Made by a program: the position numbers and the translations under genes. Below the pieces are notes generated by a model. That model was not told the origin of the DNA and made no database searches. It saw only the letters and a list, made by a program, of their open reading frames with translations. A stretch of DNA of 37,363 bases from Gammaproteobacteria bacterium (lineage in GTDB: Bacteria > Pseudomonadota > Gammaproteobacteria > SG8-11), in contig JACQEQ010000301.1 of NCBI GenBank assembly GCA_016200445.1, positions 1 through 37,363 of the forward strand, given 5' to 3'. Positions 15,717 through 31,844 of this stretch are shown here, in pieces. The first letter of the stretch is position 1, and the number at the start of each line of letters is the position of its first letter.

Positions 15717-15841
15717 GTTATTCGGGTGGGAGTTTAGATTCACTGCGATTGACAACGCCGCTGCACTAGCGCACCTTTTCGCGCCGTGCGTTGGGCATCC
15801 ATTTTACCCGCGAAAATTTCAGGAAAAGAAGACGGACCGCT

Positions 15842-17728
15842 ATGAGCAAAACTTACGACGCCGCCGCGATTGAAGTGCTGGTGGGTCTGGAGCCGGTGCG
15901 CAAGCGCCCGGGCATGTACACCCAGACCGAGCGGCCAAATCATCTGGCGCAGGAAGTCATCGACAACAGCGTGGACGAGGCGATGGCCGGTCACGCGAAG
16001 AACATCGACGTGGTGTTGTACAAAGACGGCTCGCTGCAAGTGGCCGACGACGGGCGCGGCATGCCGGTGGACCTGCACCCGGTCGAAAAAATCTCTGGCG
16101 TGGAAGTGATCCTCACGCGGCTGCACGCGGGCGGAAAATTTTCCAATTCCAATTATCAGTTCTCCGGCGGCTTGCACGGCGTGGGCGTGTCGGTGGTCAA
16201 TGCCTTGTCGAAGCGCCTGGAAGTGTGGATCAAGCGCAACGGTCAGGAATACCACATGACCTTCGGCGACGGTGCAAAAAAATCCGAACTCAAAGTGGTC
16301 GGCGAAGTCGGCAAGCGCAACACCGGCACGACGCTGCGCTTCTGGCCCGATCCTAAATATTTCGACTCGCCGAAAATCGCCGCGCCGAAGTTGAAACACG
16401 TGCTGCGCGCCAAGGCGGTGTTGTGCCCCGGCCTGAAGGTATCGTTTCTTGACGAAAACAGCGGCGAGAAAGACGAGTGGTTTTATGAATACGGCCTTCA
16501 AGATTATTTACTCAGCGAGCTGCACAACGTGCCAGTGCTGCCCGACGCGCCGTTCGTGGGCAGTTTCGCGGCGACCAACGAAGCCGTCGACTGGGCGCTG
16601 GTGTGGTTGCCGGAAGGCGGCGAACCGATTGCCGAAAGCTACGTGAATCTGATTCCGACCACTCAGGGTGGCACTCACACCAACGGTTTACGCACCGGCT
16701 TAACCGAAGCGCTGCGCGAATTTTGCGAGACGCGCAGCCTGCTACCGCGCGGTATCAAGCTCGCACCGGAAGACGTGTGGGAAAAAGTCAGTTACGTTTT
16801 ATCGGTCAAGATGAGCGACCCGCAATTCTCTGGACAAACCAAAGAGCGATTGACCTCGCGCGAAACCGCCGCGTTTGTATCCGGCGTGGTGAAAGACACG
16901 CTCGGCATCTGGCTCAATCAAAATCTCGACCAGGGCGAGCGCATCGCCGAGTTGGCGATCAACAGCGCGCAAAACCGCCTGCGTGCCGAAAAGAAAGTGG
17001 TGCGCAAAAAAGTCACCAGCGGACCCGCGTTGCCGGGCAAGCTGGCGGATTGTTCGTCGCAGGATTTATCGCGCACCGAATTGTTTTTGGTGGAAGGCGA
17101 CTCGGCGGGCGGCTCGGCCAAGCAGGCGCGCGACCGCGAGTTCCAGGCGATCATGCCGTTGCGCGGAAAAATCCTGAACACCTGGGAAGTCGATGCCAAC
17201 GAAGTGCTGGGCTCGCAGGAAGTGCACGACATTTCGGTGGCAATCGGCGTCGACCCCGGCTCGGACGATTTGAAAGGCCTGCGTTACGGCAAGATTTGCA
17301 TTCTCGCCGATGCCGATAACGATGGGGCGCATATCGCGACATTATTGTGCGCGCTGTTCGTCAGGCACTTCCGGCCCATGGTCGCGGCAGGCCACGTGTA
17401 TATCGCGATGCCGCCGCTGTTCCGCATCGACGTCGGCAACCATGTGTTCTATGCGCTCGACGACGCCGAGAAACAAGGCGTACTCGACCGCATCGCCGCA
17501 GAAAAACTGCGCGGCAAAGTCAACGTCGTGCGCTTCAAAGGTCTGGGCGAAATGAACCCGCCGCAACTGCGCGAAACCACCATCTCGCCCGACACGCGCC
17601 GCTTGGTGCAACTCACCATCGAACCCGGCGACGACACCAACCAGCTGATGGACATGCTGCTGGGTAAAAAACGCGCCTCCGACCGCAAGGCGTGGTTGGA
17701 GCAGAAGGGCGATTTGGCGACGGTGTGA
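15842..17728 (+). CDS. parE: DNA topoisomerase IV subunit B
   Basis: MSKTYDAAAIEVLVGLEPVRKRPGMYT, the GHKL ATPase, TOPRIM EGDSAGG, PLRGKILN and DADNDGAHI. At 628 aa it lacks the GyrB-type insertion. Confidence 0.9.
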   Translation: MSKTYDAAAIEVLVGLEPVRKRPGMYTQTERPNHLAQEVIDNSVDEAMAGHAKNIDVVLYKDGSLQVADDGRGMPVDLHPVEKISGVEVILTRLHAGGKFSNSNYQFSGGLHGVGVSVVNALSKRLEVWIKRNGQEYHMTFGDGAKKSELKVVGEVGKRNTGTTLRFWPDPKYFDSPKIAAPKLKHVLRAKAVLCPGLKVSFLDENSGEKDEWFYEYGLQDYLLSELHNVPVLPDAPFVGSFAATNEAVDWALVWLPEGGEPIAESYVNLIPTTQGGTHTNGLRTGLTEALREFCETRSLLPRGIKLAPEDVWEKVSYVLSVKMSDPQFSGQTKERLTSRETAAFVSGVVKDTLGIWLNQNLDQGERIAELAINSAQNRLRAEKKVVRKKVTSGPALPGKLADCSSQDLSRTELFLVEGDSAGGSAKQARDREFQAIMPLRGKILNTWEVDANEVLGSQEVHDISVAIGVDPGSDDLKGLRYGKICILADADNDGAHIATLLCALFVRHFRPMVAAGHVYIAMPPLFRIDVGNHVFYALDDAEKQGVLDRIAAEKLRGKVNVVRFKGLGEMNPPQLRETTISPDTRRLVQLTIEPGDDTNQLMDMLLGKKRASDRKAWLEQKGDLATV

Positions 17729-17856: not shown

Positions 17857-19236
17857 ATGAAAATACCGCTTTCTCCGCCGGAACTGAGCGAGCTATTGCC
17901 GAAGCTCGGTATGACGCAGCTGCACCGTGTTTTGAGCCGGGAGTTGGGTCCGCTGGTGGGTGGCCGGTATTTCCACTGGGACGAACTGCGCCACCGCACC
18001 CCGCCCGCCGGGCTGTCGCACGAGGCTTGGTGGGCGGGAATCAAAATCGCCCGTCAAGGGTTGCTGCGCGCGCTGCCGTTTCAAGACAAACTCAAACGGC
18101 CGGTATTGTTCGGGATGCCCGACCCGGTGTTGCGCGTGTTGCACGGGATTGACCGGCGCGTGGGCGGTGCGGTGACGATGGAGAAGCCGATGGTCTCCAG
18201 CGAAGACCGCGACCGCTACCTCGTCAGCTCGCTCATCGAGGAAGCCATTACTTCCAGTCAGCTCGAAGGTGCGGCCACCACACGCGAGGAAGCCAAAGCC
18301 ATGCTACGCAGCGGCCGCAAACCACGCGACCGCAGTGAACGGATGATCGTCAATAACTTCCGCGTAATGGAACATATTCGCGAGCTGCGCGATGAGGCGC
18401 TGACTCCGAAGATCGTGTTGGCCATGCACCGTATCGTGAGTCAAGACACGCTCGACGATCCGAGCGCCGTTGGCCGGTTACGCCGCCCGAATGAGAAGAT
18501 CATCGTCATGGACGCGACACGTTCGCACGTGCTGCACGAACCGCCACCGGCCAGCACATTGCCACAGCGTCTAGAACGTTTGTGTGCATTCGCCAACGAG
18601 ACCGATGGCGAGCCGTTCGTGCATCCGGTGGTTCGCGCCGTTCTCCTACACTACATGGTCGGTTACGACCATCCGTTCGTCGACGGCAACGGCCGCACGG
18701 CGCGCGCTTTGTTCTATTGGAGCTTGGCGCGTTCCGGCTACTGGCTCATGGAATACATTTCGATATCGAGTTTATTGAAGCAGGCGCCCGCGCAGTACGG
18801 GCGTGCCTACCTGCACAGCGAGACCGACGATAGCGACACCACCTATTTTATCTTGCACCAGCTATCAGTCATCGAGCGAGCCATCAAGGCGCTGTACGAA
18901 TACCTTGCGCACAAAACCTCCGAGCAGCGTTCGGCGGAGCGCCTGTTGCGTCACGCACCGCGCCTCGCCGATCAGTTTAATTATCGCCAGACCGCGCTCT
19001 TGACCCATGCGCTCAAACATCCGGGTCATGACTATACGGTGGAAAGCCACCGCCGCTCGCACCGGGTAACGCTCCAGACCGCGCGTACGGATTTGCTGAC
19101 GCTGGCGAAATTGAATCTCCTGGAGCAGGGAAAACGCTCCCGGGCACTGGTGTTTTACGCGCCCGCAGACTTGCGCGCGCGCATCGAGTCGGCCGCGCGC
19201 ATACCCACGCGCCAGCGGCGCGGAACCCCTAAATGA
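17857..19236 (+). CDS. Fic family protein (class II: internal inhibitory motif plus canonical Fic motif), with a C-terminal wHTH-like tail
   Basis: The Fic motif HPFVDGNGRTARAL fits HxFx(D/E)GNGRxxR. The motif SSQLEG, fitting (S/T)xxxE(G/N), lies upstream of the core. Confidence 0.85.
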   Translation: MKIPLSPPELSELLPKLGMTQLHRVLSRELGPLVGGRYFHWDELRHRTPPAGLSHEAWWAGIKIARQGLLRALPFQDKLKRPVLFGMPDPVLRVLHGIDRRVGGAVTMEKPMVSSEDRDRYLVSSLIEEAITSSQLEGAATTREEAKAMLRSGRKPRDRSERMIVNNFRVMEHIRELRDEALTPKIVLAMHRIVSQDTLDDPSAVGRLRRPNEKIIVMDATRSHVLHEPPPASTLPQRLERLCAFANETDGEPFVHPVVRAVLLHYMVGYDHPFVDGNGRTARALFYWSLARSGYWLMEYISISSLLKQAPAQYGRAYLHSETDDSDTTYFILHQLSVIERAIKALYEYLAHKTSEQRSAERLLRHAPRLADQFNYRQTALLTHALKHPGHDYTVESHRRSHRVTLQTARTDLLTLAKLNLLEQGKRSRALVFYAPADLRARIESAARIPTRQRRGTPK

Positions 19237-19406
19237 ATACCCACACGGGAACGACAACGTGTTTTAAACGATGCTCGATTATGCGGTGCAGGCTAGAAAA
19301 TGGGCGGCTTAACCGGCACACTCTGCGACTTAATTTGTCGTTGTGTGTTGGCAAAAACGCCGGCACGTGATCGTATGATCATTTCCGATTCAAGATGGAG
19401 GCTGCA

Positions 19407-19697
19407 ATGAATCGCTCACGCGCCCTTGCGTTACTCACACAGAGTAAACCGATACTGGCGGCCCGTTACGGGGTCACGCAGCTAGCCCTGTTTGGCTCCA
19501 CTGTGCGTGATACCCAGCGCAGCGACAGTGATGTTGACATTTTAGTCGCTTTCGATGGCCCGGCTACATCGGAACGTTACTTCGGCGTCCAGTTCTATCT
19601 CGAAGACCTGTTTGGTTGTCCAGTCGATCTGGTTACCGAAAAAGCGCTGCGCGCTGAATTGCGACCATTTATCGAAAAGGAGGCGGTGCATGTCTGA
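19407..19697 (+). CDS. MNT-type nucleotidyltransferase (antitoxin half of HEPN-MNT modules), orphan
   Basis: LFGSTVRDTQRSDSDVDILVAF fits GS...DxD. ggagg lies 5 nt upstream of the ATG at 19407; an alternative in-frame ATG is at 19395. Confidence 0.8.
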   Translation: MNRSRALALLTQSKPILAARYGVTQLALFGSTVRDTQRSDSDVDILVAFDGPATSERYFGVQFYLEDLFGCPVDLVTEKALRAELRPFIEKEAVHV

Positions 19698-19903
19698 TTC
19701 CGTGCAGCCTGAATTGAAAAACAGAAATCAAGCAAGTGTTGCCTGGATGAGGCGAAGCGAAATTCAGGAAAAGGGCGAATCAGCGTAACAATGCAGGTGG
19801 GAATTTTGAAAGTGAATTCTCAAAAACCAACGGACTATTTCGGATGTGTGATTCTTGAAATCGCGCTCGCTTGGATCGATGCCGAATCGGTCAAGCACGC
19901 TCC

Positions 19904-22774
19904 ATGAGCTTCACCGACTACCACGCTAAATATTTCGCCTATGAGCTAACCAAGCGCTGCGCACCCGACAGCGTCGAAAAACTCGCCGGAGCGGTCGCCA
20001 GCGCTCAAGTCGATCTGAATCCGCATCAGGTCGATGCCGCGTTGTTCGCGTTCCAATCCCCGCTGTCCAAGGGTGCGTTGCTTGCGGACGAAGTCGGGCT
20101 GGGCAAAACCATCGAAGCGGGTCTGGTTCTGTCGCAGAAATGGGCAGAGCGTAAACGGTGCATGCTGGTCATCACTCCGTCCAATTTGCGTACGCAGTGG
20201 TATCAAGAATTGACCGAAAAGTTTTTTCTGCCGTGCCGCATTCTTGAAGCCAAGTCATACAATGCCGTAATCAAGCTTGCGCAGCTTCGTCCATTCGAGG
20301 CGCCTGAGATCATCATTTGTTCCTACCAGTTCGCCAAGAGCAAGGCGGACGACGTGCATGCGATGCCGTGGGATCTGGTGGTCATCGACGAAGCGCATCG
20401 CCTGCGCAATGTGTACAAACCTGGCAACGTGATCGCAAACACGCTGAAGTCGGCGCTCGCGGGCAAGGACAAACTTCTTCTCACCGCGACGCCATTGCAG
20501 AACTCGCTGCTTGAGCTGTTTGGTTTAGTAAGTTTTATCGACGAACACACGTTTGGTGACTTAAAAAGTTTTCGCGAGCAATTCACTAATCTGAATCAAG
20601 AACAGGTGTTTCATACGCTCAAGGCGCGGCTCAAGCCGATTTGCCATCGGACCTTACGTCGACAAGTGACCGCATACATTCCCTTCACCAAGCGCCTGCC
20701 GCTGGTGGAGGAATTCACGCCGGAGGAAAGCGAAGACAGGCTTTACGAGGTCGTCTCCGGTTATCTGCAACGAGATAACCTGCAAGCGTTACCCGCAAGT
20801 CAACGCTCACTAATGACGCTCGTGCTGCGTAAGTTACTCGCCTCGTCGACCTTCGCCATCGCAGGCGCGTTAACGTCGATATCCAACCGCCTCAAAGCCA
20901 AGCTGCGCAAACACGAGCCCACCGAGCCGCTTGCGGACGAGCTAGACCGTGACTACGAATCCCTCGAAGAAACCGCCGAGGAATGGAGTGACGATGAGCC
21001 CGCCGAAGTGCTCACCGCCGTCGACCGTGCCGCCATCGAAATGGAAATTGTCGACCTCGATGCCTTCGCCGAACTTGCCGCGTCCATCGACCACAACGCC
21101 AAGGGCCGGGCGTTACTCAAAGTGCTGGAAATTGCCTTCGCCAAAGCGCGTGAACTCGGCGGCGCAGAGAAAGCCATCATCTTCACCGAATCGCGCCGCA
21201 CGCAAAGCTACCTGCTGCGCCTGCTGGCCGATAGTCAGTGGAGCGAAGGCATTGTGCTGTTCAACGGCACCAATACCGATGAACGCTCAAAGCAAATTTA
21301 TGCGCAATGGATCGAGCGCCATCAAGGCAGTGATCGCGTCATCGGTTCGCGCAGTGCCGACATGCGTTCGGCGCTAGTAGATTATTTTCGCGAGCAAGGT
21401 CGCATCATGATCGCGACTGAAGCCGGTGCAGAAGGCATTAACCTCCAGTTCTGTTCGTTGGTGGTGAACTACGATCTGCCGTGGAACCCGCAACGCATCG
21501 AGCAGCGCATCGGCCGCTGCCATCGCTACGGCCAGAAGCACGATGTCGTGGTCGTGAACTTTCTCAATCGCAATAACGCTGCTGACCAACGCGTGTTTGA
21601 ATTGTTGTCGGAAAAATTTCAGCTCTTCGAAGGTGTCTTCGGCGCCAGCGACGAAGTGCTCGGCGCGATTGAGTCCGGCGTGGATTTCGAAAAGCGCATC
21701 GCAGCCATCTACCAGACCTGTCGCAAGCCCGACGAAATCCAATCCGCGTTCAACCAGCTCCAGCTCGAACTCAGCCTGGAGATCAACGCGTCGATGACGC
21801 GCACGCGCCGGAACTTGTTGGAACATTTCGACGACGAAGTACGCGACAAGCTCAAGGTGCGCGACGAGGCCGCGAAAGCCTTTCTCAGTCGCTTCGAACG
21901 CTTGCTCATGCAACTCACGCGGCACGAGTTGGGCGACAACGCAACATTTCGAGACGACTACGCTTTTCTTCTCAAGTCCTGTCCGTATTCCGTCGACATT
22001 CCGCTAGGCTTGTACGAACTGCCGCGCCGCTCCGGCGAGACGCATCTTTACCGTCTGAATCACCCGCTCGCCGAAGCGCTGTTAGCGCAGGCGAAAGCGC
22101 GCGACCTGCCGCCCGCTGAAGTTCATTTCGATTACGGACTGCATGACGGCAAGGTCACGCTGTTGGAGCCCCTCATCGGCAAGTCCGGTTGGCTCACGCT
22201 CACGCTGTTTAGCGTCGAGTCGCTGAATCAGGCGGAGGATCACCTTGTCGTTGCCGCAACCACCACTGATGGCGACGCGCTTGATGAAGAAATCGCAACG
22301 CGCCTGCTTACCCTGCCGGGTCGCGTGAACGGTACAACACCAGCAACGTCTGCCCCCTCAGCATTGGAACAACAAACCGCGCAACGCCAAGCGGTCATCC
22401 AACGCAACATCTCGGAGCGCAATGCGCGCTTCTTTGAAGCTGAGGCGGAAAAACTCGATGGCTGGGCTGACGATCTCAAAGTGGGTTTGGAGCGTGAAAT
22501 CAAAGAGCTCGACCGCCAGATTAAAGAAGCGCGGCGCGCAGCGACCACCGCGCTAACGTTGGAAGAAAAGCTCGCAGGGCAGAAACAGATCAAAGCCGTT
22601 GAAGCGCAACGCAACCAGAAACGGAGAACGCTGTTCGACGCGCAAGACCAAGTAGACAATCAACGTGACGAGCTCATTGCTCAAATCGAAGGCAAATTGA
22701 CCCAATCGACCCGGATCGAGACGCTCTTCACGTTGCGCTGGACTGTTGTGTCTAGCCGCGAAACCAGCGCATGA
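19904..22774 (+). CDS. SNF2-family helicase with a long C-terminal extension ending in a coiled coil
   Basis: LADEVGLGKTIEAG (I), VVIDEAHRLRN (II), LLLTATPLQNSLLELFGL (III), ATEAGAEGINLQ (V), WNPQRIEQRIGRCHRYGQ (VI). The C-terminal 350 aa lack recognised motifs and end in a charged heptad-like region (EAEAEKLDGWADDLKVGLEREIKELDRQIKEARR...). Confidence 0.85.
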   Translation: MSFTDYHAKYFAYELTKRCAPDSVEKLAGAVASAQVDLNPHQVDAALFAFQSPLSKGALLADEVGLGKTIEAGLVLSQKWAERKRCMLVITPSNLRTQWYQELTEKFFLPCRILEAKSYNAVIKLAQLRPFEAPEIIICSYQFAKSKADDVHAMPWDLVVIDEAHRLRNVYKPGNVIANTLKSALAGKDKLLLTATPLQNSLLELFGLVSFIDEHTFGDLKSFREQFTNLNQEQVFHTLKARLKPICHRTLRRQVTAYIPFTKRLPLVEEFTPEESEDRLYEVVSGYLQRDNLQALPASQRSLMTLVLRKLLASSTFAIAGALTSISNRLKAKLRKHEPTEPLADELDRDYESLEETAEEWSDDEPAEVLTAVDRAAIEMEIVDLDAFAELAASIDHNAKGRALLKVLEIAFAKARELGGAEKAIIFTESRRTQSYLLRLLADSQWSEGIVLFNGTNTDERSKQIYAQWIERHQGSDRVIGSRSADMRSALVDYFREQGRIMIATEAGAEGINLQFCSLVVNYDLPWNPQRIEQRIGRCHRYGQKHDVVVVNFLNRNNAADQRVFELLSEKFQLFEGVFGASDEVLGAIESGVDFEKRIAAIYQTCRKPDEIQSAFNQLQLELSLEINASMTRTRRNLLEHFDDEVRDKLKVRDEAAKAFLSRFERLLMQLTRHELGDNATFRDDYAFLLKSCPYSVDIPLGLYELPRRSGETHLYRLNHPLAEALLAQAKARDLPPAEVHFDYGLHDGKVTLLEPLIGKSGWLTLTLFSVESLNQAEDHLVVAATTTDGDALDEEIATRLLTLPGRVNGTTPATSAPSALEQQTAQRQAVIQRNISERNARFFEAEAEKLDGWADDLKVGLEREIKELDRQIKEARRAATTALTLEEKLAGQKQIKAVEAQRNQKRRTLFDAQDQVDNQRDELIAQIEGKLTQSTRIETLFTLRWTVVSSRETSA

Positions 22775-23006
22775 AGGAGCCTGTGATGACAGATACCCAC
22801 TATCCTTGTCCGAACCGCCGGAAGGCATCGCGGGGAAGTCGTTGCAGGAGATTGAGGGTTGGGTCTTCCGGCGCTTGAAGATGATTCTGAATTGTAGCCG
22901 GGATGTCGTGCCCACGTTTAAGCTTGGGGTAACAGTGACGAATGGCTATACAAATGAAATATCGCACCTTCAATGGAAAGAAAGATTTGCTGAGGTATGC
23001 CCATGA
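22746..23006 (+). CDS. Possible short ORF translationally coupled to the ATPase (unknown function)
   Basis: The open frame ends in an ATGA overlap with the ATPase start (23003-23006). The start codon is unclear and no family was recognised. Confidence 0.25.
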   Translation: MCLAAKPAHEGACDDRYPLSLSEPPEGIAGKSLQEIEGWVFRRLKMILNCSRDVVPTFKLGVTVTNGYTNEISHLQWKERFAEVCP

Positions 23007-24103
23007 TTAAACGAGTATCCAATTCAAACCAGCTTTCAAAGCTGACATTGCATGGCTACAAGTCGATTGCATCGTGCGAGATTGAATTAGGCAAGCTCAA
23101 TGTTTTGATCGGCGCTAACGGTGCGGGAAAGTCGAATTTCATCGGCTTTTTCAGGCTAATAAGCAAGATTCTGGATCAGCAGCTGCAATCGGCTGTTGGA
23201 ACTTCTGGCGGCCCTGATGCCATGCTGCATTTTGGACGAAAAAAAACGGAAGAACTGAATGCCGAGCTCTATTTCGGTAACAATGGGTACAAATTCAAGC
23301 TGAAACCCACTCAAGACAATCGGATGATGTTTTCGCGCGAATGCCTGTGGTGGAACATGAGTGGTGATTGGCAGCCGCATTCCGGACATTTCGAGTCCTA
23401 TCTGGAAGCGCAAAAGGGAAAAACCAATATCTGGGGCTACGTCGTTCCACCCATGCGAAGCTGGCGTGCCTATCACTTCCATGACACCAGTGACAGCGCT
23501 ACGGTCAAACAGGTGCACGGCATTAACGACAATGAATATCTGCGTGCAGATGCCCGTAATCTGGCGGCATTTCTTTTCCGCCTGAAAAACCACCATGAGG
23601 CGCATTACCGCCGCATCGTTAAATCCATTCAGTTGGTAGCGCCGTTTTTTGGTGACTTCCATCTACGTCCGGCGGTGGATAACAAGGAAAAAATTCAACT
23701 TGAATGGACCGAGGCCGGGCAAGACGTGCCGTTCTCTGCCAGCGCGCTGTCGGACGGCACGCTTCGCTTTATCTGTTTAGCCACCGTGCTATTGCAACCC
23801 GAGCAGTTCATGCCAGCGTCCATTTTGATTGATGAGCCGGAATTAGGATTACACCCCTACGCTATTGCTGTTCTCGGCGCATTGATGAAATCGACTGCCG
23901 AAAAACATCAACTGATTGTCTCCACGCAGTCCGTTGAGTTGGTTAACGAATTTGAGGCAGACGATCTGATTGTGGTGGATAAGGAAAATGGTGCGTCCAC
24001 GTTCAAGCGACCCGACACCGCCGCCCTCACCGAATGGCTGAACGATTTCAGTCTCGGCGAGTTGTGGAAGAAAAATCTTCTGGGCGGGAGACCGGCGCGA
24101 TGA
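23003..24103 (+). CDS. ABC/SMC-like AAA ATPase (AAA_21/AAA_15 type)
   Basis: Walker A GANGAGKSNF, LSDGTLRF, Walker B ILIDEPELGLHP, and STQS. The N-terminus has the L.L.GYKSI pattern typical of OLD/ABC-like defence ATPases. The gene is AT-richer than the flanking SNF2 and res genes by eye. Confidence 0.8.
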   Translation: MIKRVSNSNQLSKLTLHGYKSIASCEIELGKLNVLIGANGAGKSNFIGFFRLISKILDQQLQSAVGTSGGPDAMLHFGRKKTEELNAELYFGNNGYKFKLKPTQDNRMMFSRECLWWNMSGDWQPHSGHFESYLEAQKGKTNIWGYVVPPMRSWRAYHFHDTSDSATVKQVHGINDNEYLRADARNLAAFLFRLKNHHEAHYRRIVKSIQLVAPFFGDFHLRPAVDNKEKIQLEWTEAGQDVPFSASALSDGTLRFICLATVLLQPEQFMPASILIDEPELGLHPYAIAVLGALMKSTAEKHQLIVSTQSVELVNEFEADDLIVVDKENGASTFKRPDTAALTEWLNDFSLGELWKKNLLGGRPAR

Positions 24104-24756
24104 AGCGCATGTATTTGCTGGCGGAAGGTCAGACAGAAGAAACCTTCGTAAGAGAATTGCTCGCGCCGCACTATGCTCGAAGTGGCTTGTTCATTACGCC
24201 AATCATTGTGCGCACCAGCCCCGGCCACAAAGGTGGCGTGGTGAGCTACGCCAAGGTCAAGCCGCAAATCATCCGCCTGTGTAAACAGGACGCAGCCGCC
24301 TATGTGTCCACGTTGTTTGATCTATACGCCTTGCCCGATGATTTTCCGGGCAAGACTTCAGCGGCATACCAATCAAAAAATATCGGCGCGCAAAAAGCAG
24401 CATTTCTCGAAGCCGCGCTCGCACAGGACGTCAACGAACCCAACTTCATTCCTTTTCTCATGGTGCATGAGTTCGAAGCCTTATTGTTCGTGCAGCCCGA
24501 GAAATTCGCCGTGTGGACGGACAAAGCCGATGTGGTGTCCTCGTTAGGCAAGGTTGCACAGAAACACCAGACACCGGAAGACATTAATGACAAGCCGCAA
24601 ACTGCTCCATCAAAGCGGATTCTGGACCTGATGCCTGAATACGAGAAACCGTTTCATGGCCCGCTGATCGCTTGCGATATTGGCCTGGATGCCATGCGCC
24701 AATCCTGCCCGCATTTTGAGGCCTGGCTTCAGAGGCTGGAAGCGCTGGCTGCATGA
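24100..24756 (+). CDS. DUF4276 family protein (Toprim-like partner of the ATPase)
   Basis: The ATG overlaps the ATPase stop (ATGA at 24100-24103). Sequence: MKRMYLLAEGQTEETFVRELL ... LFDLYALP ... VHEFEALLF. Confidence 0.7.
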   Translation: MKRMYLLAEGQTEETFVRELLAPHYARSGLFITPIIVRTSPGHKGGVVSYAKVKPQIIRLCKQDAAAYVSTLFDLYALPDDFPGKTSAAYQSKNIGAQKAAFLEAALAQDVNEPNFIPFLMVHEFEALLFVQPEKFAVWTDKADVVSSLGKVAQKHQTPEDINDKPQTAPSKRILDLMPEYEKPFHGPLIACDIGLDAMRQSCPHFEAWLQRLEALAA

Positions 24757-24780
24757 ACAATGAAGCAGTGAATCGTCGAA

Positions 24781-25909
24781 ATGAGTAAGAAAAAACTAGA
24801 ACTGACCTGGATCGGCAAGGAAACCCGGCCGAAGCTGGAGCCACGGATTTTGTTGGAGGATGCGGCGCGGTCGTATCACGCGAAATACAGGAGCGCGGGC
24901 GTCTCGCCCGCGCTCCAGGACATTTTCGACAACCGGCTGATCTTCGGCGACAACCTGCTGGCGCTGAAGGCGCTGGAGGCGGAGTTTGCGGGGAAGGTGA
25001 AGTGCGTGTTCATCGATCCGCCGTACAACACCGGCAGCGCCTTCACGCATTACGACGACGGGGTGGAGCATTCGATCTGGCTGTCGCTGATGCGCGACCG
25101 GCTGGAGATTATCCGGCGGTTGTTGTCGGAGGATGGTTCGCTGTGGATCACGATTGACGACAACGAGGCGCATTACCTGAAGGTGTTGTGCGATGAAGTG
25201 TTTGGGCGGGCGAATTTTGTTTCAACTGTTATCTGGCAAAAAAAATACGCACCGAAATCTGATTCCAAGTACTTTTCTGAATCGCATGATTTCGTATTGG
25301 TAATCGCCAAGCAGATTGATCGGTTTCAGCTTGGACGATTGCACAAGACAGAAAAGCAGACTGGTCGTTACACCAATCGAGACAACGACCCGCGTGGGTC
25401 TTGGAAGGCAAGTGACGTACTGCGGAATGAAGCACGGGATTACGCTATTTTTCCCGTGAAGTTACCTTCAGGGCGTGAGGTATGGCCGCCTTCTGGAACA
25501 AGCTGGAGATACACAAAGGAGAAGTTCGAAGAGCTGGTTGCCGATAATCGCATTTGGTTTGGTGTTGATGGCGATGCAAGACCGGCATACAAGCGATTTA
25601 TTTCGGAAGTGAGTGACACGATCCCAAGCACAACGATTTGGGGTTTTGACGAGGTTGGACATAACGACGAGTCGAAGAAAGAAATGCGAGCTATCTTTGG
25701 TGAGGATTTGTTCGCCACTCCAAAGCCGGAGAGATTGCTTCAGCGGGTTATCCAACTTGCTACCAACCCCAACGACCTCATCCTCGACTCCGAAGAAAAT
25801 TCCCAACGCGGTGTTGAAGCGCTGCGAGTGGGGTCATGACGACTACAGTTTGAAGGTGGAGAATCTGCCGCAGGCGGCGCCTAAGCCGGGGCAGGGGGAC
25901 TTATTTTGA
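24781..25909 (+). pseudogene. mod: Type III (beta-class N6/N4) DNA methyltransferase Mod, internally deleted
   Basis: Motif IV FIDPPYNTG and the pre-motif-I segment ATPKPERLLQRVIQLATNPNDLILDS are present. The FxGxG AdoMet motif that should follow is missing. The frame then runs into nonsense and stops at 25839. A C-terminal-looking fragment, KKIPNAVLKRCEWGHDDYSLKVENLP, continues in another frame to 25909. Confidence 0.65.
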
Positions 25910-25910
25910 T

Positions 25911-25993
25911 CCGCAGATTACGCAGATTTACACAGATTCAAAAACCAGAAACTGCCGTTGGGTTTAATCGGCGGAAATCTGCGAAATCTGTGG
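25911..25993. repeat. Left palindromic heptad-rich unit flanking the GxxExxY gene
   Basis: ccgcagattacgcagatttacacagattca ... aatcggcggaaatctgcgaaatctgtgg. The two halves are inverted copies built from CAGATT(T/A)-type heptads. Confidence 0.7.
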
Positions 25994-26005
25994 AGAAAGT
26001 TTCTT

Positions 26006-26458
26006 ATGAACAGGGATGAGCAAACTTTCGCAATTATCGGTGCGGCGATGGAGGTGCATCGGGAACTGGGTCATGGGTTCCTGGAAGCCGTTTACCAAGA
26101 GGCCCTTGCCCTGGAATTTACGGGCCGCCGGATTGTTTTCACGCGTGAAATCGAATTGCCCATTTTGTATCGAGGGCAACGACTGAACACGGGGTACCGC
26201 GCGGACTTTGTGTGTTTTGACGCGGTAGTTGTCGAGCTGAAAGCCCTGGACCGACTGACAACGAGGGAAGAGTCGCAGCTTATCAACTACCTCAAAGCCA
26301 GCGGCAAGGAGCGTGGGTTGTTGCTGAACTTTGGGAGCCGGAGCCTGGAATATAAAAGGATGATTTTTTCAAATCCGCAGATTACACGGATTTCCACAGA
26401 TTCATCTCAAGATAATCGGCGCGAATCTGCGCAATCTGCGGAAGGAGAAACTGGATGA
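26006..26458 (+). CDS. GxxExxY protein (PD-(D/E)XK-like small protein)
   Basis: [25 protein letters not shown] (GxxExxY), [26 protein letters not shown]...GLLLNFG. The C-terminal tail [10 protein letters not shown] is encoded by the right-hand repeat unit. Confidence 0.85.
26375..26441. repeat. Right palindromic heptad-rich unit flanking the GxxExxY gene
   Basis: ccgcagattacacggatttccacagattca ... aatcggcgcgaatctgcgcaatctgcgg. This is a direct copy of the unit at 25911-25993. Confidence 0.7.
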
Positions 26459-26511
26459 TTCGGGGGATAGGGTGTGGAACGATCACGCAGCCGTTTTATG
26501 AGAGGCAAGTT

Positions 26512-26736
26512 ATGAAGCTACAGATCGACGAAGAAGCGGATGCGCTGCACCTGCAATTGGTGGATGTGCCGGTGGTCGAGTCGGAGGAAGTGGCGCCCGG
26601 CGTGATCGTGGATTATGACGATGCCGATCAAGTGGTGGGTATTGAGGTGCTGCATTTATCGAAGCGGCCGCATCCGGTGAACCTGATGGATTTCCAATTC
26701 CTGACGAATCCACGGCGCGCGGTGGCGGGGAAATAA
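26512..26736 (+). CDS. DUF2283 domain protein
   Basis: MKLQIDEEADALHLQL...EEVAPGVIVDYDDADQVVGIEVLHLSKR. RBS gagagg lies upstream. Confidence 0.75.
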   Translation: MKLQIDEEADALHLQLVDVPVVESEEVAPGVIVDYDDADQVVGIEVLHLSKRPHPVNLMDFQFLTNPRRAVAGK

Positions 26737-29421
26737 GTGAACCGTCACGTCAATGCCATCGCCGGCCGGTTGAGTTTGCGCGCGCCGCAGCGCGCGTCGC
26801 TGGAAATTCTGGATCGCATCACCGAGATTGCGCCGCCGCGCAAGGCGGCCGACCTTGCGGCAGAGCTGGCGGCGATTCAAAGCGAGTATCCGACCGTCAC
26901 GGATTTCGAGCGCGAGTTTCCGTCGCTGTGTTTCGCGCTGGCGACCGGTGTGGGCAAGACGCGGCTGATGGGCGCGTTCATCAGCTACCTGCATCTTGCG
27001 CATGGGCTGAACAACTTTTTTGTGATGGCGCCAAATCTCACCATTTACAACAAACTCATTACCGACTTCACGCCGAATACATCGAAGTATGTATTCAAAG
27101 GGATTGCCGAGTTCGCGGTGAACAGCCCGTCGATCGTCACTGGCGATAACTATGAGAAGAGCGATCCGACCACGGGCACGCTGTTTGGCGGCGTGAGCGT
27201 GAACATCTTCAACATATCGAAGATCAATTCGGAAGTGCGTGGCGGCAAGTCGCCGAAGATTCGCCGCTTGTCGGAATATATCGGGCAGAGTTATTTCGAC
27301 TATCTCGCCGGGCTCGATGACTTGGTGCTCATCATGGACGAGTCGCACCGCTACCGCGCGTCGGCGGGCGTGCGCGCGATCAACGAATTAAAACCGGTGC
27401 TGGGGCTTGAACTGACCGCGACGCCGTTTGTGGAAACGAGCAAGGGGCCAGTTCAATTCAAGAACGTGATCTACGACTATCCGCTGGGTAAAGCGATGGA
27501 AGACGGCTTTGTAAAAGAACCGGCGGTGGTTACACAGAAGAATTTTGACCCGAGCAGTTTTACACCTGCGCAGCTTGAAGAGATCAAATTAAAAGACGGC
27601 ATACGCCTGCACGAAAACGTGAAGGTGGAGTTGGAAACCTACGCGCGGCAGACCGATCAGGCCATCGTCAAACCCTTCGTGCTGGTGATCGCGCGCGATA
27701 CCACGCACGCCGGGCAGTTGATGCAGTTAATTCAGTCGCACGAATTCTTCGAGGGGCGCTACAAGGACAAGGTGATTCAGGTGGATTCGAGCAAGACCGG
27801 CGCGGAGGAAGACGCGATGGTCGAACGGTTGCTGCGCGTCGAGCACGCCGACGAGCCGACGGAAATCGTAATCCACGTGAACATGCTCAAGGAAGGCTGG
27901 GACGTGACCAACCTCTACACCATCGTGCCGCTGCGCGCAGCGAATGCGCGGACCTTGATCGAGCAATCGATCGGGCGCGGCTTGCGCCTGCCCTACGGCA
28001 AACGCACCGGCGTGATGTCGGTGGACCGGCTCAACATCGTCGCGCACGACAAATTTCAGGAGATCGTCGACGAGGCAAACCGGGCGGATTCCGTGATTCG
28101 GTTGCAGCAAGTCATTCTCGATCCGGCCAACGATTTCGCGCCGATGGTGACGGTGGTTTCGAATGCGACCTTGCTCGATCACATCGGCGGCCATTCCGTG
28201 CACGTGGCGGGCGTGCCGGTGCAGAACCCGACGGCGCAAAATGTTTTCGCGACCGACGCTGAGAAGAAAATCGCTCAGGCTACCGTAGAGGTCATCAAGA
28301 AATTCGAGAATTACCCAACGTCGCGGAGTTTGCTCGACAAGAAAGTGCAGGAAAACCTTGTGCGCGAAGTGGCTGCCATCTACGCGCCGGTGCAAGGTGA
28401 GCTGGAAGGCATTGGTGAGAAGCCGGACATCGCCGCCGTTGTCGCCAAGGCGACCGCGTTGCTGGTGGACAAGACTATCGACATCCCGCGCATCACCGTT
28501 GTGCCGAAAGGCGAAGTCAGCAGCGGGTTTCATTCGTTCAAATTGAACGCGAGCGCGATTCACTATCAGCCGGTCGAGCGCGACATTTTGATTAAGCATT
28601 TGCGCACGAACGAGCTGGAAACATTGAGCAGCGCCGGAGCGGACGACATCGAGACGCGGCTCGAAGATTATCTGGTGCGCGCGTTGATCGACCACAACGA
28701 TATTTCCTACGACCATCACGCAGGGTTGCTGTACGACCTTGCCGGGCAGATGGTCGCGCATATTCGCGGTTATCTTTCCGAGGACGATGCGCGCAACGTG
28801 TTGCAATACTACCAACGCCCGCTGGCGGAATTCATCCACGCGCAAATGCAAAATCACTATTGGGAAAAGGTGTCGGGCTACGACGTGGCGGTGAGCAAAG
28901 GATTTACGACGCTACGGCGGTCGGCCTATACCGCACCCGCAGGCAAGATTGCGGCGAATTTCCGCGAGACCGTCACCGACCGGAACAAGATCGGACAAAT
29001 GCTGTTTAACGGTTTCAAAAATTGTTTGTATGATGTGCAGCGCTTTCATTCGGACACCGAGCGTAAGCTCGCGATCATTCTCGACCGCGATGCGCAGAAG
29101 TGGTTCCGGCCCGTCGCGGGGCAATTTCAGATGTACTACAAACTCGGCCACGAACAACCGGAATACGTGCCCGACTTCGTTGCCGAGGCAAGCGACGGCA
29201 ACTACGTGATCGAAACGAAAGCGCGCAATGAAATGGAAGCCGCCGACGTGCTCGCAAAACGCGACGCCGCCGTCGCCTGGTGCGGCCACGCAACGCGCCA
29301 CGCGAAGGACAACGGCGGCAAGCCGTGGCGTTATCTGCTGATTCCGCACGACGAGGTTGCCGAAAACATCACCCTGCCGGGTTTTGTATCGCGGTTTGCG
29401 TGCGAGCAACTCGAAGCGTAA
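26737..29421 (+). CDS. res: Type III restriction enzyme Res subunit (SF2 helicase plus C-terminal PD-(D/E)XK nuclease)
   Basis: LATGVGKTRLM (I), LIMDESHRY (II), LELTATP (III), MLKEGWDVTNL, QSIGRGLRLP (VI). The C-terminal nuclease-like segment is YVPDFVAEASDGNYVIETKA. The GTG start immediately follows the DUF2283 stop. Confidence 0.85.
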   Translation: MNRHVNAIAGRLSLRAPQRASLEILDRITEIAPPRKAADLAAELAAIQSEYPTVTDFEREFPSLCFALATGVGKTRLMGAFISYLHLAHGLNNFFVMAPNLTIYNKLITDFTPNTSKYVFKGIAEFAVNSPSIVTGDNYEKSDPTTGTLFGGVSVNIFNISKINSEVRGGKSPKIRRLSEYIGQSYFDYLAGLDDLVLIMDESHRYRASAGVRAINELKPVLGLELTATPFVETSKGPVQFKNVIYDYPLGKAMEDGFVKEPAVVTQKNFDPSSFTPAQLEEIKLKDGIRLHENVKVELETYARQTDQAIVKPFVLVIARDTTHAGQLMQLIQSHEFFEGRYKDKVIQVDSSKTGAEEDAMVERLLRVEHADEPTEIVIHVNMLKEGWDVTNLYTIVPLRAANARTLIEQSIGRGLRLPYGKRTGVMSVDRLNIVAHDKFQEIVDEANRADSVIRLQQVILDPANDFAPMVTVVSNATLLDHIGGHSVHVAGVPVQNPTAQNVFATDAEKKIAQATVEVIKKFENYPTSRSLLDKKVQENLVREVAAIYAPVQGELEGIGEKPDIAAVVAKATALLVDKTIDIPRITVVPKGEVSSGFHSFKLNASAIHYQPVERDILIKHLRTNELETLSSAGADDIETRLEDYLVRALIDHNDISYDHHAGLLYDLAGQMVAHIRGYLSEDDARNVLQYYQRPLAEFIHAQMQNHYWEKVSGYDVAVSKGFTTLRRSAYTAPAGKIAANFRETVTDRNKIGQMLFNGFKNCLYDVQRFHSDTERKLAIILDRDAQKWFRPVAGQFQMYYKLGHEQPEYVPDFVAEASDGNYVIETKARNEMEAADVLAKRDAAVAWCGHATRHAKDNGGKPWRYLLIPHDEVAENITLPGFVSRFACEQLEA

Positions 29422-29453: not shown

Positions 29454-31703
29454 ATGACTGACGAAACAAAAACCAACCCCGACGGTATCGAGCGTCAGCC
29501 GCTGCGCGCGTTCAGCGAGAAGGCGTATCTTGACTATTCGATGTACGTGATTCTGGATCGCGCGTTGCCGCATATCGGCGACGGCTTGAAGCCGGTGCAG
29601 CGGCGCATTGTTTATGCGATGAGCGAGCTGGGTTTGAAGGCCGGGAACAAATACAAAAAATCCGCGCGCACGGTCGGTGATGTGCTCGGCAAATTTCATC
29701 CGCATGGTGACTCGGCGTGTTACGAAGCGATGGTGTTGATGGCGCAGCCGTTTTCGTATCGCTATCCGCTGGTCGACGGGCAGGGCAACTGGGGATCGCC
29801 CGATGACCCCAAATCCTTCGCCGCGATGCGTTACACCGAATCGCGCTTGGCGAAATATGCCGAAGTGTTGCTCGCGGAGTTGGGGCAGGGCACGGTCGAT
29901 TGGGTGCCGAATTTCGACGGCACCATGGACGAGCCGTCGCTGTTGCCGGCGCGCTTGCCTAACGTGTTGTTGAACGGGACGACCGGCATCGCGGTCGGCA
30001 TGGCAACCGATATTCCGCCACATAACCTGCGCGAAGTCGCCGCAGCGTGTATTCACTTGATCGAAAATCCCAAAGCCACGGTCAGCGAGCTGTGTGAATT
30101 CGTGTTGGGGCCGGATTTCCCCACCGACGCGGAAATCATCACGCCGCGCCAAGAGCTGTTGGCGATGTATGAAACCGGTAACGGTTCGGTGCGCATGCGT
30201 GCGCGTTACGAAATTGAAGATGGCTGTGTGGTGCTGACGTCGCTGCCGCACCAGACCTCGGGCGCGAAAATCCTGGAGCAGATCGCGCAGCAGATGAATG
30301 CGAAGAAATTGCCGATGGTGGAAGACTTGCGCGACGAGTCCGACCACGAAAACCCGACGCGCCTGGTGATCGTGCCGCGTTCCAACCGCGTGGATTTGGA
30401 TGAATTGATGGGCCACCTGTTCGCGACCACCGACCTGGAACGCAGCTACCGTATCAACATGAACATGATCGGCTTGAACGGCCGCCCGCAGGTCAAGAAC
30501 CTACGCGACCTGTTGAGCGAGTGGCTGGAGTTCCGCATGTTGACGGTTCGCCGCCGCTTGCAGTGGCGGCTCGACAAGGTCAATGCGCGCTTGCACATCC
30601 TTGACGGTTTGCTGATCGCCTACCTGAACATCGACGAAGTGATTCGCATCATCCGCACCAACGACGAGCCCAAGCCGGTGTTGATGGCGCGTTTCAAGCT
30701 GAGCGACACGCAGGCCGAGGCGATTCTAGAACTCAAGCTGCGGCACCTCGCCAAGCTCGAAGAAATGCAGATTCGCACCGAGCAGAACGAGCTGGCCGAA
30801 GAACGCGACGAACTGCAAAAAATTCTGGATTCGGGTAAGCGGTTACGCACGCTAGTCAAAAAAGAAATTCAGGACGACATGAAAACCTACGGTGACGAAC
30901 GCCGTTCGCCCTTGGTCACACGTGCAATCGCCAAGGCCATCGACGAATCGACGCTGGTCGGTGCCGAGCCGGTAACGGTCATTTTGTCCGAAAAAGGCTG
31001 GGTGCGTTCCGCCAAAGGCCACGACATCGACGCGCTCGCGCTGCAATACAAAGCGGGCGACAGCTTTCGCGCAGCCGCCATCGGCAAGAGTAATCAGTCT
31101 GCGGTGTTCCTCGACTCCACCGGCCGTGCCTATACGTTGCCTGCGCACCAATTGCCATCGGCGCGCGGCCACGGCGAACCGCTGACCGGCTGGCTGAATC
31201 CGCCGCCGGGCGCAACCTTTGCGGGTGTCATGTTGGGTGTGCCGGAGCAGTTGTACCTGGTCGGCAGCGACGCGGGTTACGGCTTCGTCGCCAAGCTCGA
31301 AGACATGTCGACTAAAAATAAAAACGGTAAAGCCGTATTGAGCGTATCGGCAGGGAGTCGCGTCGTGGCACCTGCACCGATTTTCGATGTCGAAACCGAC
31401 CGCCTCGCCGCAGTCACCAACGACGGTCACATGCTGGTATTTGCAGTAAAAGACCTGCCTATGCTGGCAAAAGGCCGTGGCAATAAAATTATCGGTGTGT
31501 CGCCCAAGGACGACGAAGCGTTATTCGCGTTGCTGTCGATTCCAAAAGGCGGTGGCCTGACCATCTTCGCCGGCAAACAACACACCACGCTGAGTGCCAG
31601 CGAATTGAACGAGTACCAAGGCGAACGCGGACGACGCGGCAAGAAACTTCCGCGTGGCTATCAGAAGGTGGATCGCGTCGCGTTACTTCCTCCAGCATCG
31701 TGA
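29454..31703 (+). CDS. parC: DNA topoisomerase IV subunit A
   Basis: [33 protein letters not shown], the active-site [10 protein letters not shown], and a length of 749 aa. Confidence 0.9.
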
Positions 31704-31844
31704 TCGGATCAAAAGTCGTAGCATGGTTCACATAGGGTCTGTGAACCACTGCGTAGTGCAACCGGCTTCACAAAATTTATTCAATATTTAGAGGGATCAA
31801 GACGATACAAATTAAGATAAACGTATCGCTTGGACTGTAGTTTC

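Follow-up and report, generated by a model that had tools for sequence, protein, structure and literature searches.

An SNF2-linked type III restriction-modification variant as the probable backbone of a nested defence locus in a gammaproteobacterial genome

What kind of defence system is represented by an SNF2 helicase gene that heads a compact series of genes for an ATPase, a DUF4276 protein and the two subunits of a type III restriction-modification enzyme? The question is raised by a 37,363-nucleotide stretch of DNA (hereafter the window), contig JACQEQ010000301.1 of assembly GCA_016200445.1, which comes from a metagenome-assembled genome labelled Gammaproteobacteria and carries such a block at positions 19,904 to 29,421. 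An initial annotation, made from the letters of the window alone, had proposed a composite or undescribed system. The comparative analysis leads to a probable answer, that of a nested defence locus in which a type III variant backbone of three genes, SNF2, mod and res, hosts other defence cassettes between its genes. The proposal stands in so far as the SNF2-mod-res arrangement apparently carries no name, but the eight open reading frames (ORFs) of the block are not read as one obligate system, and the ATPase-DUF4276 pair had already been named as the candidate system HEC-01.

The evidence that carries this answer is the recurrence of the backbone. Scanning one genome per GTDB species with the SNF2 protein returned at least 568 relatives at E ≤ 1e-20 in searches limited to 8,000 candidate clusters, more distant SNF2 relatives counted in, and loci were sampled from the best 80 matches per scan, which for SNF2 are 54-83% identical and come from many phyla. 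Among the 52 GTDB loci with at least 8 kb of sequence downstream of the SNF2 homologue, 51 carry a type III mod-res pair on the same strand. Homologues of the window mod and res are found in 46 loci, a larger type III pair in five (Mod of ~1,022 residues, PDLC03646, and Res of ~1,090 residues, PDLC03654), and one locus has res without mod. The reverse link was also observed, as an SNF2 gene lies upstream in 19 of the 21 metagenome loci with at least 9 kb of sequence ahead of a Res homologue, and all four plasmid lineages that encode a full-length Res of 44-52% identity (Salmonella, Aeromonas, Roseomonas and Sphingopyxis) have an "SNF2-related protein" upstream. Because SNF2, mod and res recur in this order in dozens of unrelated genomes, the arrangement is far beyond what chance would give. 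Pairwise identities of SNF2 and Res are strongly correlated (r = 0.91, Mantel p ~0.001) despite the variable cargo that lies between them. Mod tracks its partners less closely (r = 0.59 for SNF2 against mod), which would be expected if loci exchange mod alleles or target-recognition regions. Taken as a comparison of sequences, these results indicate that SNF2, mod and res are passed on together as one backbone in many bacterial phyla and on plasmids. The initial annotation had made its proposal depend on SNF2 homologues being recurrently linked to mod and res or to ATPase-DUF4276 genes; the first linkage recurs in the proportions just given, and the second on the Aeromonas media plasmid pMC64A, where the SNF2/HEC-01A/HEC-01B/mod/res layout is found again with HEC-01A 58% and HEC-01B 56% identical.

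The extent of the clade can be followed on plasmids. SNF2 relatives at least 42% identical have type III neighbours, at ~28% identity the neighbours become a genuine Hma (helicase-methylase-ATPase) locus with DUF499 and DUF1156, and at ~29% a gene named drmD by the Prokaryotic Genome Annotation Pipeline (PGAP) appears. A cargo-free "large" form, composed of a helix-turn-helix (HTH) gene, SNF2, a methylase of ~1,046 residues and a helicase of ~1,120 residues, was seen a few kb from psiB/psiA on the Escherichia coli IncFIB/IncFII conjugative plasmid pEC316_2 (L085; L numbers denote individual loci), and the same HTH-SNF2-methylase-helicase locus or similar SNF2 matches are also present on Klebsiella IncF plasmids, with 39 Klebsiella plasmids matched. 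No upstream regulator is universal among the loci: a small HTH gene occurs in five of them and a WYL gene in one, and the small HTH gene also lies upstream on the Salmonella and E. coli plasmids and is annotated in other Salmonella and Klebsiella plasmid matches.

At the protein level, the SNF2 product matches SNF2-rel_dom (3e-34) and Helicase_C (2e-19) of Pfam, and the motor motifs GLGKT, DEAHRLRN, TATPLQN and QRIGRCHRYGQ, conserved in the alignment, are intact in the window. Its best profile matches are models of DrmD: the PADLOC model PDLC02619 gives 680 bits over residues 32-666 only, NCBIfam DrmD_b (NF038318) reaches 686 bits, short of its cut-off of 950, over residues 32-656, that is, the motor alone, and NCBIfam DrmD (NF038317) gives 249 bits against a cut-off of 610. 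The PADLOC HmaA model reaches only 162 bits, against 680 for DrmD. Since the SNF2 protein falls below the DrmD cut-offs, not every component of the block maps to a named independent system. Beyond the motor, the C-terminus of an AlphaFold2 model (107 homologues) is predicted with confidence (pLDDT, a predicted score on the local distance difference test, of 80-90) as an alpha+beta domain at 680-811, a long antiparallel coiled coil at 819-931, in agreement with the coiled-coil tail that had been noticed at the outset, and a final strand, while only ~30 residues precede the motor. Foldseek ranked RapA first (E 1e-19) over ~1,030 aligned columns that include the C-terminal domains, and eukaryotic remodellers and ZorD align to the ~600-column motor only. 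RapA is also the top sequence match among solved structures, with query residue 34 aligned to RapA residue 150-156. The SNF2 protein therefore starts at about RapA residue 150 and has no equivalent of the N-terminal ~150 residues of RapA, the region that binds RNA polymerase in the published RapA structures; a housekeeping RapA was considered and set aside on this ground. A search for a PD-ExK motif in the alpha+beta domain found no convincing conserved D...ExK among its invariant columns. BrxHII and the Hma-type helicases have been described as RapA-like in layout, and an inactive nuclease fold has been reported for RapA and BrxHII (PMC12839542).

The third backbone gene encodes a recognisable type III Res, which matches PADLOC REase_III PDLC03648 at 1e-214 and Pfam ResIII at 5e-19 and has the EcoP15I Res as its closest solved structure by sequence (1.5e-7, 33 bits). 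Both superfamily 2 (SF2) helicase motifs (GVGKT, DESHRY, TATP, QSIGRGLR) and a C-terminal PD-ExK nuclease (PDF at 811-813 and ETK at 826-828) are present and are conserved across 38 sequences. In relatives mod and res are adjacent or overlapping, and in the window the GxxExxY and DUF2283 genes lie between them.

The copy of mod in the window is broken. Its ORF has 352 codons, the first 337 of which are in frame and encode motif IV (FIDPPYNTG) and the target-recognition region; Pfam assigns it to N6_N4_Mtase, and it covers PADLOC MTase_III PDLC03636 only at positions 2-370 of 575. Up to the residues LILDS it is 81% identical to the intact 564-residue Mod of Pseudoduganella sp. R-43 (L071:18489-20183), after which it lacks everything from motif I (FAGSGTT) to reference residue ~499. 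The deletion junction lies at ~25788-25792, and three-frame translations locate a C-terminal remnant (KKIPNAVLKRCEWGHDDYSL...GQGDLF and stop) in another frame at ~25790-25909. The spacing from motif I to KIP..RCEW is 165-171 residues in 41 of the 46 full-length Mod homologues scanned. The window mod thus carries a frameshifting deletion of ~0.5 kb, or ~167 codons, that includes motif I, which binds S-adenosylmethionine (AdoMet); motif IV, target-recognition region and motif I are found together in L071 and L041 and not in the window. In the beta class of methylases the AdoMet-binding half comes after the target-recognition region, as in the EcoP15I structure, so its loss destroys the catalytic fold. 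With motif I lost and the remainder frameshifted, methylation should be dead, and restriction should be lost with it, since a type III Res finds its sites through Mod. The res ORF is intact and mod is a pseudogene, and the restriction-modification backbone is probably dead in this genome. The fact that SNF2, Res and HEC-01 are still intact ORFs suggests that this inactivation is recent. Decayed copies of the backbone, in which mod is truncated or absent, res is in fragments or SNF2 is cut to 266 residues, were also observed in L027, L040, L048, L141 and L144, and inactivation of the backbone seems to be common. The central part of the window mod has a GC content at third codon positions (GC3) of 53% against 85% at the N-terminus, and SNF2 and res are only 57-59% identical to those of the L071 locus, a pattern that points to the exchange of mod alleles or target-recognition regions between loci.

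Cargo between the backbone genes varies from locus to locus. In the minimal forms SNF2 lies 9-38 nt from mod (L032, L033, L041, L079), the longest SNF2-to-mod gap is 5.9 kb among the genomes and about 6.8 kb among the metagenomes, and 100 of the 128 gap ORFs are on the backbone strand. Clustering and profile scans of the ORFs between SNF2 and mod identified AIPR/AbiU-like proteins (20 ORFs in 19 loci), LmuB-like ATP-binding cassette (ABC) ATPases (11 loci), Septu PtuA/PtuB and Ppl-like ATPases (four loci each), DUF2130 proteins (four loci: L017, L031, L048 and L058), GmrSD/HEC-06 and Schlafen-like proteins (two loci each) and Dsr2 (one locus). HEC-01A-like ATPases with other partners occur in ~6 GTDB loci, and phmmer found a DUF4276 homologue among the cargo in none of the 57 GTDB loci with a measurable gap. 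A search for att-like (attachment) sites at the SNF2/mod junction found no conserved one flanking the cargo, which leaves the idea of a dedicated recombination site without support. It has been reported that defence systems often carry embedded systems, commonly ABC ATPase pairs (10.1101/2024.01.29.577857). On these comparative data, both the SNF2/mod and the mod/res junctions appear to be hot spots where defence or addiction cassettes lodge and turn over, and the recurrent backbone with its variable cargo supports the early suggestion that cassettes were inserted into an older SNF2-mod-res backbone.

In the window, the first junction holds HEC-01 together with the fossil of an earlier cargo gene. 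HEC-01A matches the PADLOC model PDLC04175 at 1.4e-156 over profile positions 4-362 of 363 and Pfam AAA_21 at 1.5e-26, with Walker A (GANGAGKS), signature (LSDGTLR) and Walker B (ILIDEPE) all present, and HEC-01B matches its PADLOC model at 2.5e-87 over positions 12-227 of 230 and Pfam DUF4276 at 1.8e-60. An ABC ATPase thus adjoins a DUF4276/TOPRIM-like protein, both as full-length matches. HEC-01, an "Hma-embedded candidate", pairs an ABC ATPase with a TOPRIM-like putative nuclease; it was first found embedded in Hma and also occurs on its own (10.1101/2024.01.29.577857). The short ORF that precedes HEC-01A had been read as coupled to the ATPase by an ATGA overlap; the overlap is real, but the ORF is better explained as a relic. 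It has no family match in Pfam, PADLOC or NCBIfam, and positions 22824-22887 inside it align over 35-66 nt, at 81-94% identity, with the 3' ends of DUF2130-type genes from L002, L108, L061, L100 and L031. The peptide EGIAGKSLQEIEG likewise matches the DUF2130 C-termini of L031 and L058, and the spacer from SNF2 to HEC-01A (22775-22996), which holds most of the short ORF, has a GC3 of 42%. Judged by these matches, the short ORF is not a gene and holds the 3'-end fossil of an earlier DUF2130-family cargo gene; such a fossil behind SNF2 is direct evidence of cargo turnover, in which earlier cargo was replaced.

The second junction holds a GxxExxY PD-(D/E)XK cassette and a DUF2283 gene. The GxxExxY protein matches TIGR04256 at 5.7e-42 (142.8 bits against a cut-off of 35) and PDDEXK_3 at 8e-39 (133 bits against 22), and its gene is bracketed by two copies of a palindromic unit of ~85 nt (CCGCAGATTAC...AATCTGCGG) at 25910-25994 and 26374-26442, with direct and inverted repeats detected around it. 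Homologous cassettes lie between mod and res in L119, L149 and L122, and the gene with its palindromes looks like a small mobile cassette. GxxExxY cassettes or their palindromes were recorded at the mod/res junction of L144, L054, L136 and L094 in addition to these three loci. DUF2283 (Pfam 3e-16) has 79% identical copies at the mod/res junction of the Nitrospira loci L031 and L058. With the backbone in its present state, HEC-01 and the small cassettes may be the only parts that still function in this genome.

All block ORFs lie on one strand with tight junctions and ATGA overlaps, and every coordinate and junction of the initial annotation holds in the ORF map and the junction sequences (Table 1). 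Its domain calls are borne out as well, with Pfam recovering SNF2-rel_dom and Helicase_C, AAA_21, DUF4276, N6_N4_Mtase, DUF2283 and ResIII and adding PDDEXK_3, and the alternation of composition first seen by eye has a numerical counterpart. GC content is 56.4% in SNF2, 60.0% in the N-terminal part of mod (GC3 84.5%) and 57.5% in res, and it is 50.3% in HEC-01A, 53.4% in HEC-01B and 48.4% in the central target-recognition part of mod (GC3 52.6%). The whole defence insert, ~17.8-29.4 kb, is bordered by the topoisomerase IV genes parE (15791-17728) and parC (29454-31703), and neither an integrase nor a tRNA gene was seen at its borders beside them. The insert is larger than the block and also includes a gene for a Fic-domain protein and an orphan nucleotidyltransferase antitoxin gene. 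The latter, of the MNT type, lacks an intact HEPN partner downstream, where stop codons follow the gene directly (19395-19790). MNT homologues were seen in two backbone loci, between SNF2 and mod in L002 (78% identical) and just upstream of res in L141 (46%), and a Fic homologue, 46% identical, adjoins res in the metagenome locus L119. Elsewhere in the window, overlapping DUF5343 and Hypoth_Ymh (TIGR02391-type) genes at 1637-2825 lie in a patch of low GC (47-49%) and may be a separate small two-gene cassette, and a 589-residue ORF downstream of parC (31830-33599) has no match in Pfam, NCBIfam or PADLOC.

Table 1. Features of the block and of the island edge next to it (positions in the window)
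Feature	Position	Strand	Remarks
SNF2 gene	19904..22774	+	ATG 19904, stop at 22774; 956 residues, ORF intact
Spurious short ORF	22746-23006	+	TGA overlaps ATG 23003 as ATGA; further in-frame ATG 22997
HEC-01A ABC-type ATPase (AAA_21)	22997..24103	+	embedded cargo
HEC-01B (DUF4276)	24100..24756	+	start overlaps HEC-01A stop by ATGA
Type III mod pseudogene	24781..25909	+	ATG 24781, 24 nt past the DUF4276 gene
GxxExxY / PDDEXK_3 cassette	25910..26458	+	coding sequence most likely 26007-26458 (start 25958/26007)
DUF2283 small protein	26455..26736	+	start probably ATG 26512; mod/res junction cargo
Type III Res	26737..29421	+	GTG start abuts DUF2283 stop (26736); 894 residues, intact ORF
Fic-domain protein	17857-19236	+	459 residues, island edge at parE; Pfam Fic 4e-18
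Orphan MNT-type nucleotidyltransferase antitoxin gene	19395-19697	+	Pfam NTP_transf_2 1e-16

Other ways of reading the locus have to be weighed against these data. Defence genes cluster in islands, the composition of the block is mosaic, and PADLOC would report an RM type III system and HEC-01 as two separate calls (when run on the window it assigned HEC-01A/B, MTase_III and REase_III, and matched the SNF2 protein best with a DrmD model, in the motor only); SNF2, HEC-01 and a two-gene type III system might accordingly be independent genes brought together by chance. For SNF2, mod and res this is largely refuted by their same-strand order in 51 of 52 loci, by the 19 of 21 reverse links and the four plasmid lineages, by the minimal forms in which SNF2 directly abuts mod, and by an SNF2/Res correlation that persists across variable cargo, so that chance association is very unlikely for the backbone, and it still holds for the interchangeable cargo, HEC-01, GxxExxY and DUF2283. 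The opposite view, in which all eight ORFs form one obligate system with the ATPase-DUF4276 pair as an integral subunit of the SNF2-mod-res machine, draws on the tight one-strand spacing with ATGA overlaps and on the identical layout of pMC64A. It deserves hardly any credence, given that most loci hold unrelated cargo or none, that phmmer found no DUF4276 homologue in the 57 GTDB loci with a measurable gap, that the ~6 HEC-01A-like ATPases have other partners, and that HEC-01 occurs embedded in Hma and alone. A divergent member of class 1 DISARM (defence island system in association with restriction-modification) or of the Hma/Gao_RL/MANTIS group might also be considered, as the top SNF2 matches are DrmD models (680-686 bits), HEC-01 was first found in Hma, and the overall logic of an SNF2 motor, an adenine methylase and a nuclease is alike. 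Pfam and PADLOC scans found in none of the window ORFs scanned a DrmA, DrmB (DUF1998), DrmC (PLD), DUF499 or DUF1156, and because all of these are absent the locus is neither DISARM nor Hma/Gao_RL/MANTIS, as had been suspected from the start. DISARM membership was rejected on the DrmD scores, which cover the motor only and fall short of their cut-offs, and on the missing core triplet, and Hma/MANTIS membership on the lack of DUF499, DUF1156 and an SNF2-nuclease and on the HmaA score. Moreover, a DrmMI-type methylase is missing, true Hma loci and PGAP-named drmD appear only at ~28% and ~29% SNF2 identity, and the block has a type III Mod for its methylase and a type III Res for its nuclease, so that such a membership is highly improbable.

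It could also be argued that the backbone is functional in this genome, either because the deletion in mod is an assembly artefact or strain variant or because the truncated Mod still targets Res. The contig belongs to a metagenome-assembled genome, the SNF2 and res genes are unbroken and keep their conserved catalytic motifs, and Mod retains its N-terminal half and target-recognition region. These points are outweighed by the clean junction followed by a frameshifted C-terminal remnant, by the presence of the lost motif I region in 41 of 46 Mod homologues, by the established requirement of the AdoMet-binding half for the catalytic fold and by the like decay of five other loci, which make a working backbone improbable here, if less so than the three preceding alternatives. 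As for the nested locus itself, several observations weigh against it or temper it. The sampling of loci favours close relatives (SNF2 identities of 54% or more, Res identities of 61% or more), plasmid matches alone reaching 42-44%, and two Res loci, L121 and L122, have no SNF2 gene within 10 kb. Promoter and terminator counts in the block are no higher than the shuffled expectation and give no support to a single operon. The SNF2 model is of moderate quality (mean pLDDT 71, predicted template modelling score, pTM, 0.41), and its template modelling scores (TM-scores) against RapA are low, 0.27-0.29. Since the contig derives from a metagenome-assembled genome, the deletion in mod could reflect an error of assembly or a variant present in a minority. 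In its sole published test, carried out in E. coli with the phages tried, HEC-01 did not protect (10.1101/2024.01.29.577857). Finally, the specific role assigned to SNF2 below (docking, remodelling, aid to restriction) is tentative, and we hold it to be somewhat less probable than its contrary.

Under the preferred reading of a nested locus, an intact copy would work as follows. A Mod dimer would recognise a short asymmetric site and hemimethylate host DNA. Res, loaded by Mod, would communicate over long range by means of its SF2 ATPase and cleave invader DNA that lacks the methylation with its PD-ExK domain. The SNF2 protein, in which no nuclease motif was recognised, may translocate along double-stranded DNA or remodel it. 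Its C-terminal module of alpha+beta domain and coiled coil could serve to dock it on Mod/Res, and it might aid restriction by removing proteins bound to the DNA or by powering translocation, much in the way that DrmD is paired with DrmMI in class 1 DISARM. The cassettes lodged in the locus would be independent, co-transcribed second-line defences, as PrrC is inside EcoprrI. A bolder proposal, that SNF2 is an obligate third subunit and that the clade forms a distinct dual-motor class of restriction-modification systems, combining an SNF2 translocase with a Res switch-nuclease, is on balance unlikely. Were it true, one motor core would operate in both DISARM class 1 and type III Mod/Res, fitted to each by a different C-terminal adaptor, and the locus would be both an evolutionary bridge from classical type III to DISARM- and BREX-like (bacteriophage exclusion) systems and a platform for the exchange of abortive infection (Abi)-type defences.

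All parts of the locus are of known kinds, and HEC-01, GxxExxY and DUF2283 are ordinary. Type III enzymes are textbook two-subunit machines. Full-text searches of the literature found no paper naming SNF2 plus type III Mod/Res as a system, nor was any tool model found, and it has been stated in general terms that SWI2/SNF2 ATPases have diversified inside restriction-modification operons (PMC3417536). The SNF2-linked type III variant is apparently widespread and unnamed, and its clade is found on plasmids of Salmonella, E. coli and Klebsiella besides many phyla. Current annotation tools would split such a locus into "RM type III" and a stray "DrmD". If SNF2 is required, the clade represents an uncharacterised restriction mechanism that would help to explain the DrmD-type helicases of DISARM; if it is dispensable, the locus is still a rich scaffold in which new defence genes can be found by their embedded position. 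In either case it is the clade-level finding that is worth an experiment, the window copy being a decaying example of it.

Comparison with known systems places the block between several of them. The fold match to RapA spans the C-terminal domains too, but the block SNF2 differs from RapA in its long C-terminal coiled coil, its ties to mod and res and its horizontal mobility. HEC-01 is present as described, with overlapping full-length HEC-01A and HEC-01B genes embedded between the genes of a helicase-methylase system, except that the host here is the SNF2-type III backbone and not Hma. A parallel for such nesting is PrrC in the type IC system EcoprrI, where an ABC-ATPase-type effector lies in a restriction-modification operon as a back-up defence; PrrC is, in contrast, a single-protein anticodon nuclease, and HEC-01 is not known to be coupled to its host restriction-modification system.

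Hma, Gao_RL, MANTIS and the related DUF499-centred systems akin to BREX share with the block an SNF2-family motor, an adenine methylase and a nuclease, and other systems (HEC-01, Septu, GmrSD) are frequently embedded in them; they also resemble type III enzymes in methylase-directed specificity and in a preference for inverted sites. They differ in needing a DUF499 AAA+ ATPase, which is their third component (PMC12839542; MANTIS preprint), and a DUF1156 methylase, and in having the nuclease fused to SNF2, whereas in the block it lies on Res; the block SNF2 is, in addition, only ~28% identical to theirs. Class 1 DISARM (DrmD-DrmMI-DrmA-DrmB-DrmC) is alike in placing an SNF2 helicase gene directly ahead of an adenine methylase gene, its motor is the closest profile match, and drmD and drmMI behave as a functional pair, their joint deletion abolishing most of the protection against one phage (10.1101/2021.12.28.474362). 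In contrast to DISARM, the block methylase is an N6_N4_Mtase of the type III Mod kind and not of the DrmMI type, and the DrmD_b profile misses the SNF2 C-terminus and scores under the curated cut-offs. With the canonical type III enzymes EcoP15I, EcoP1I and PstII the block shares a beta-class N6-adenine Mod, in which DPPY comes before and FxGxG after the target-recognition region, a Res with SF2 motifs and a C-terminal PD-ExK nuclease, and, in intact relatives, a mod gene directly upstream of res. To our knowledge no member of the SNF2-linked clade has been characterised. It departs from the canonical enzymes in the great distance of its Res from that of EcoP15I (33 bits), in junctions that host cargo and, above all, in a third conserved gene, the SNF2 ATPase, that stands ahead of mod.

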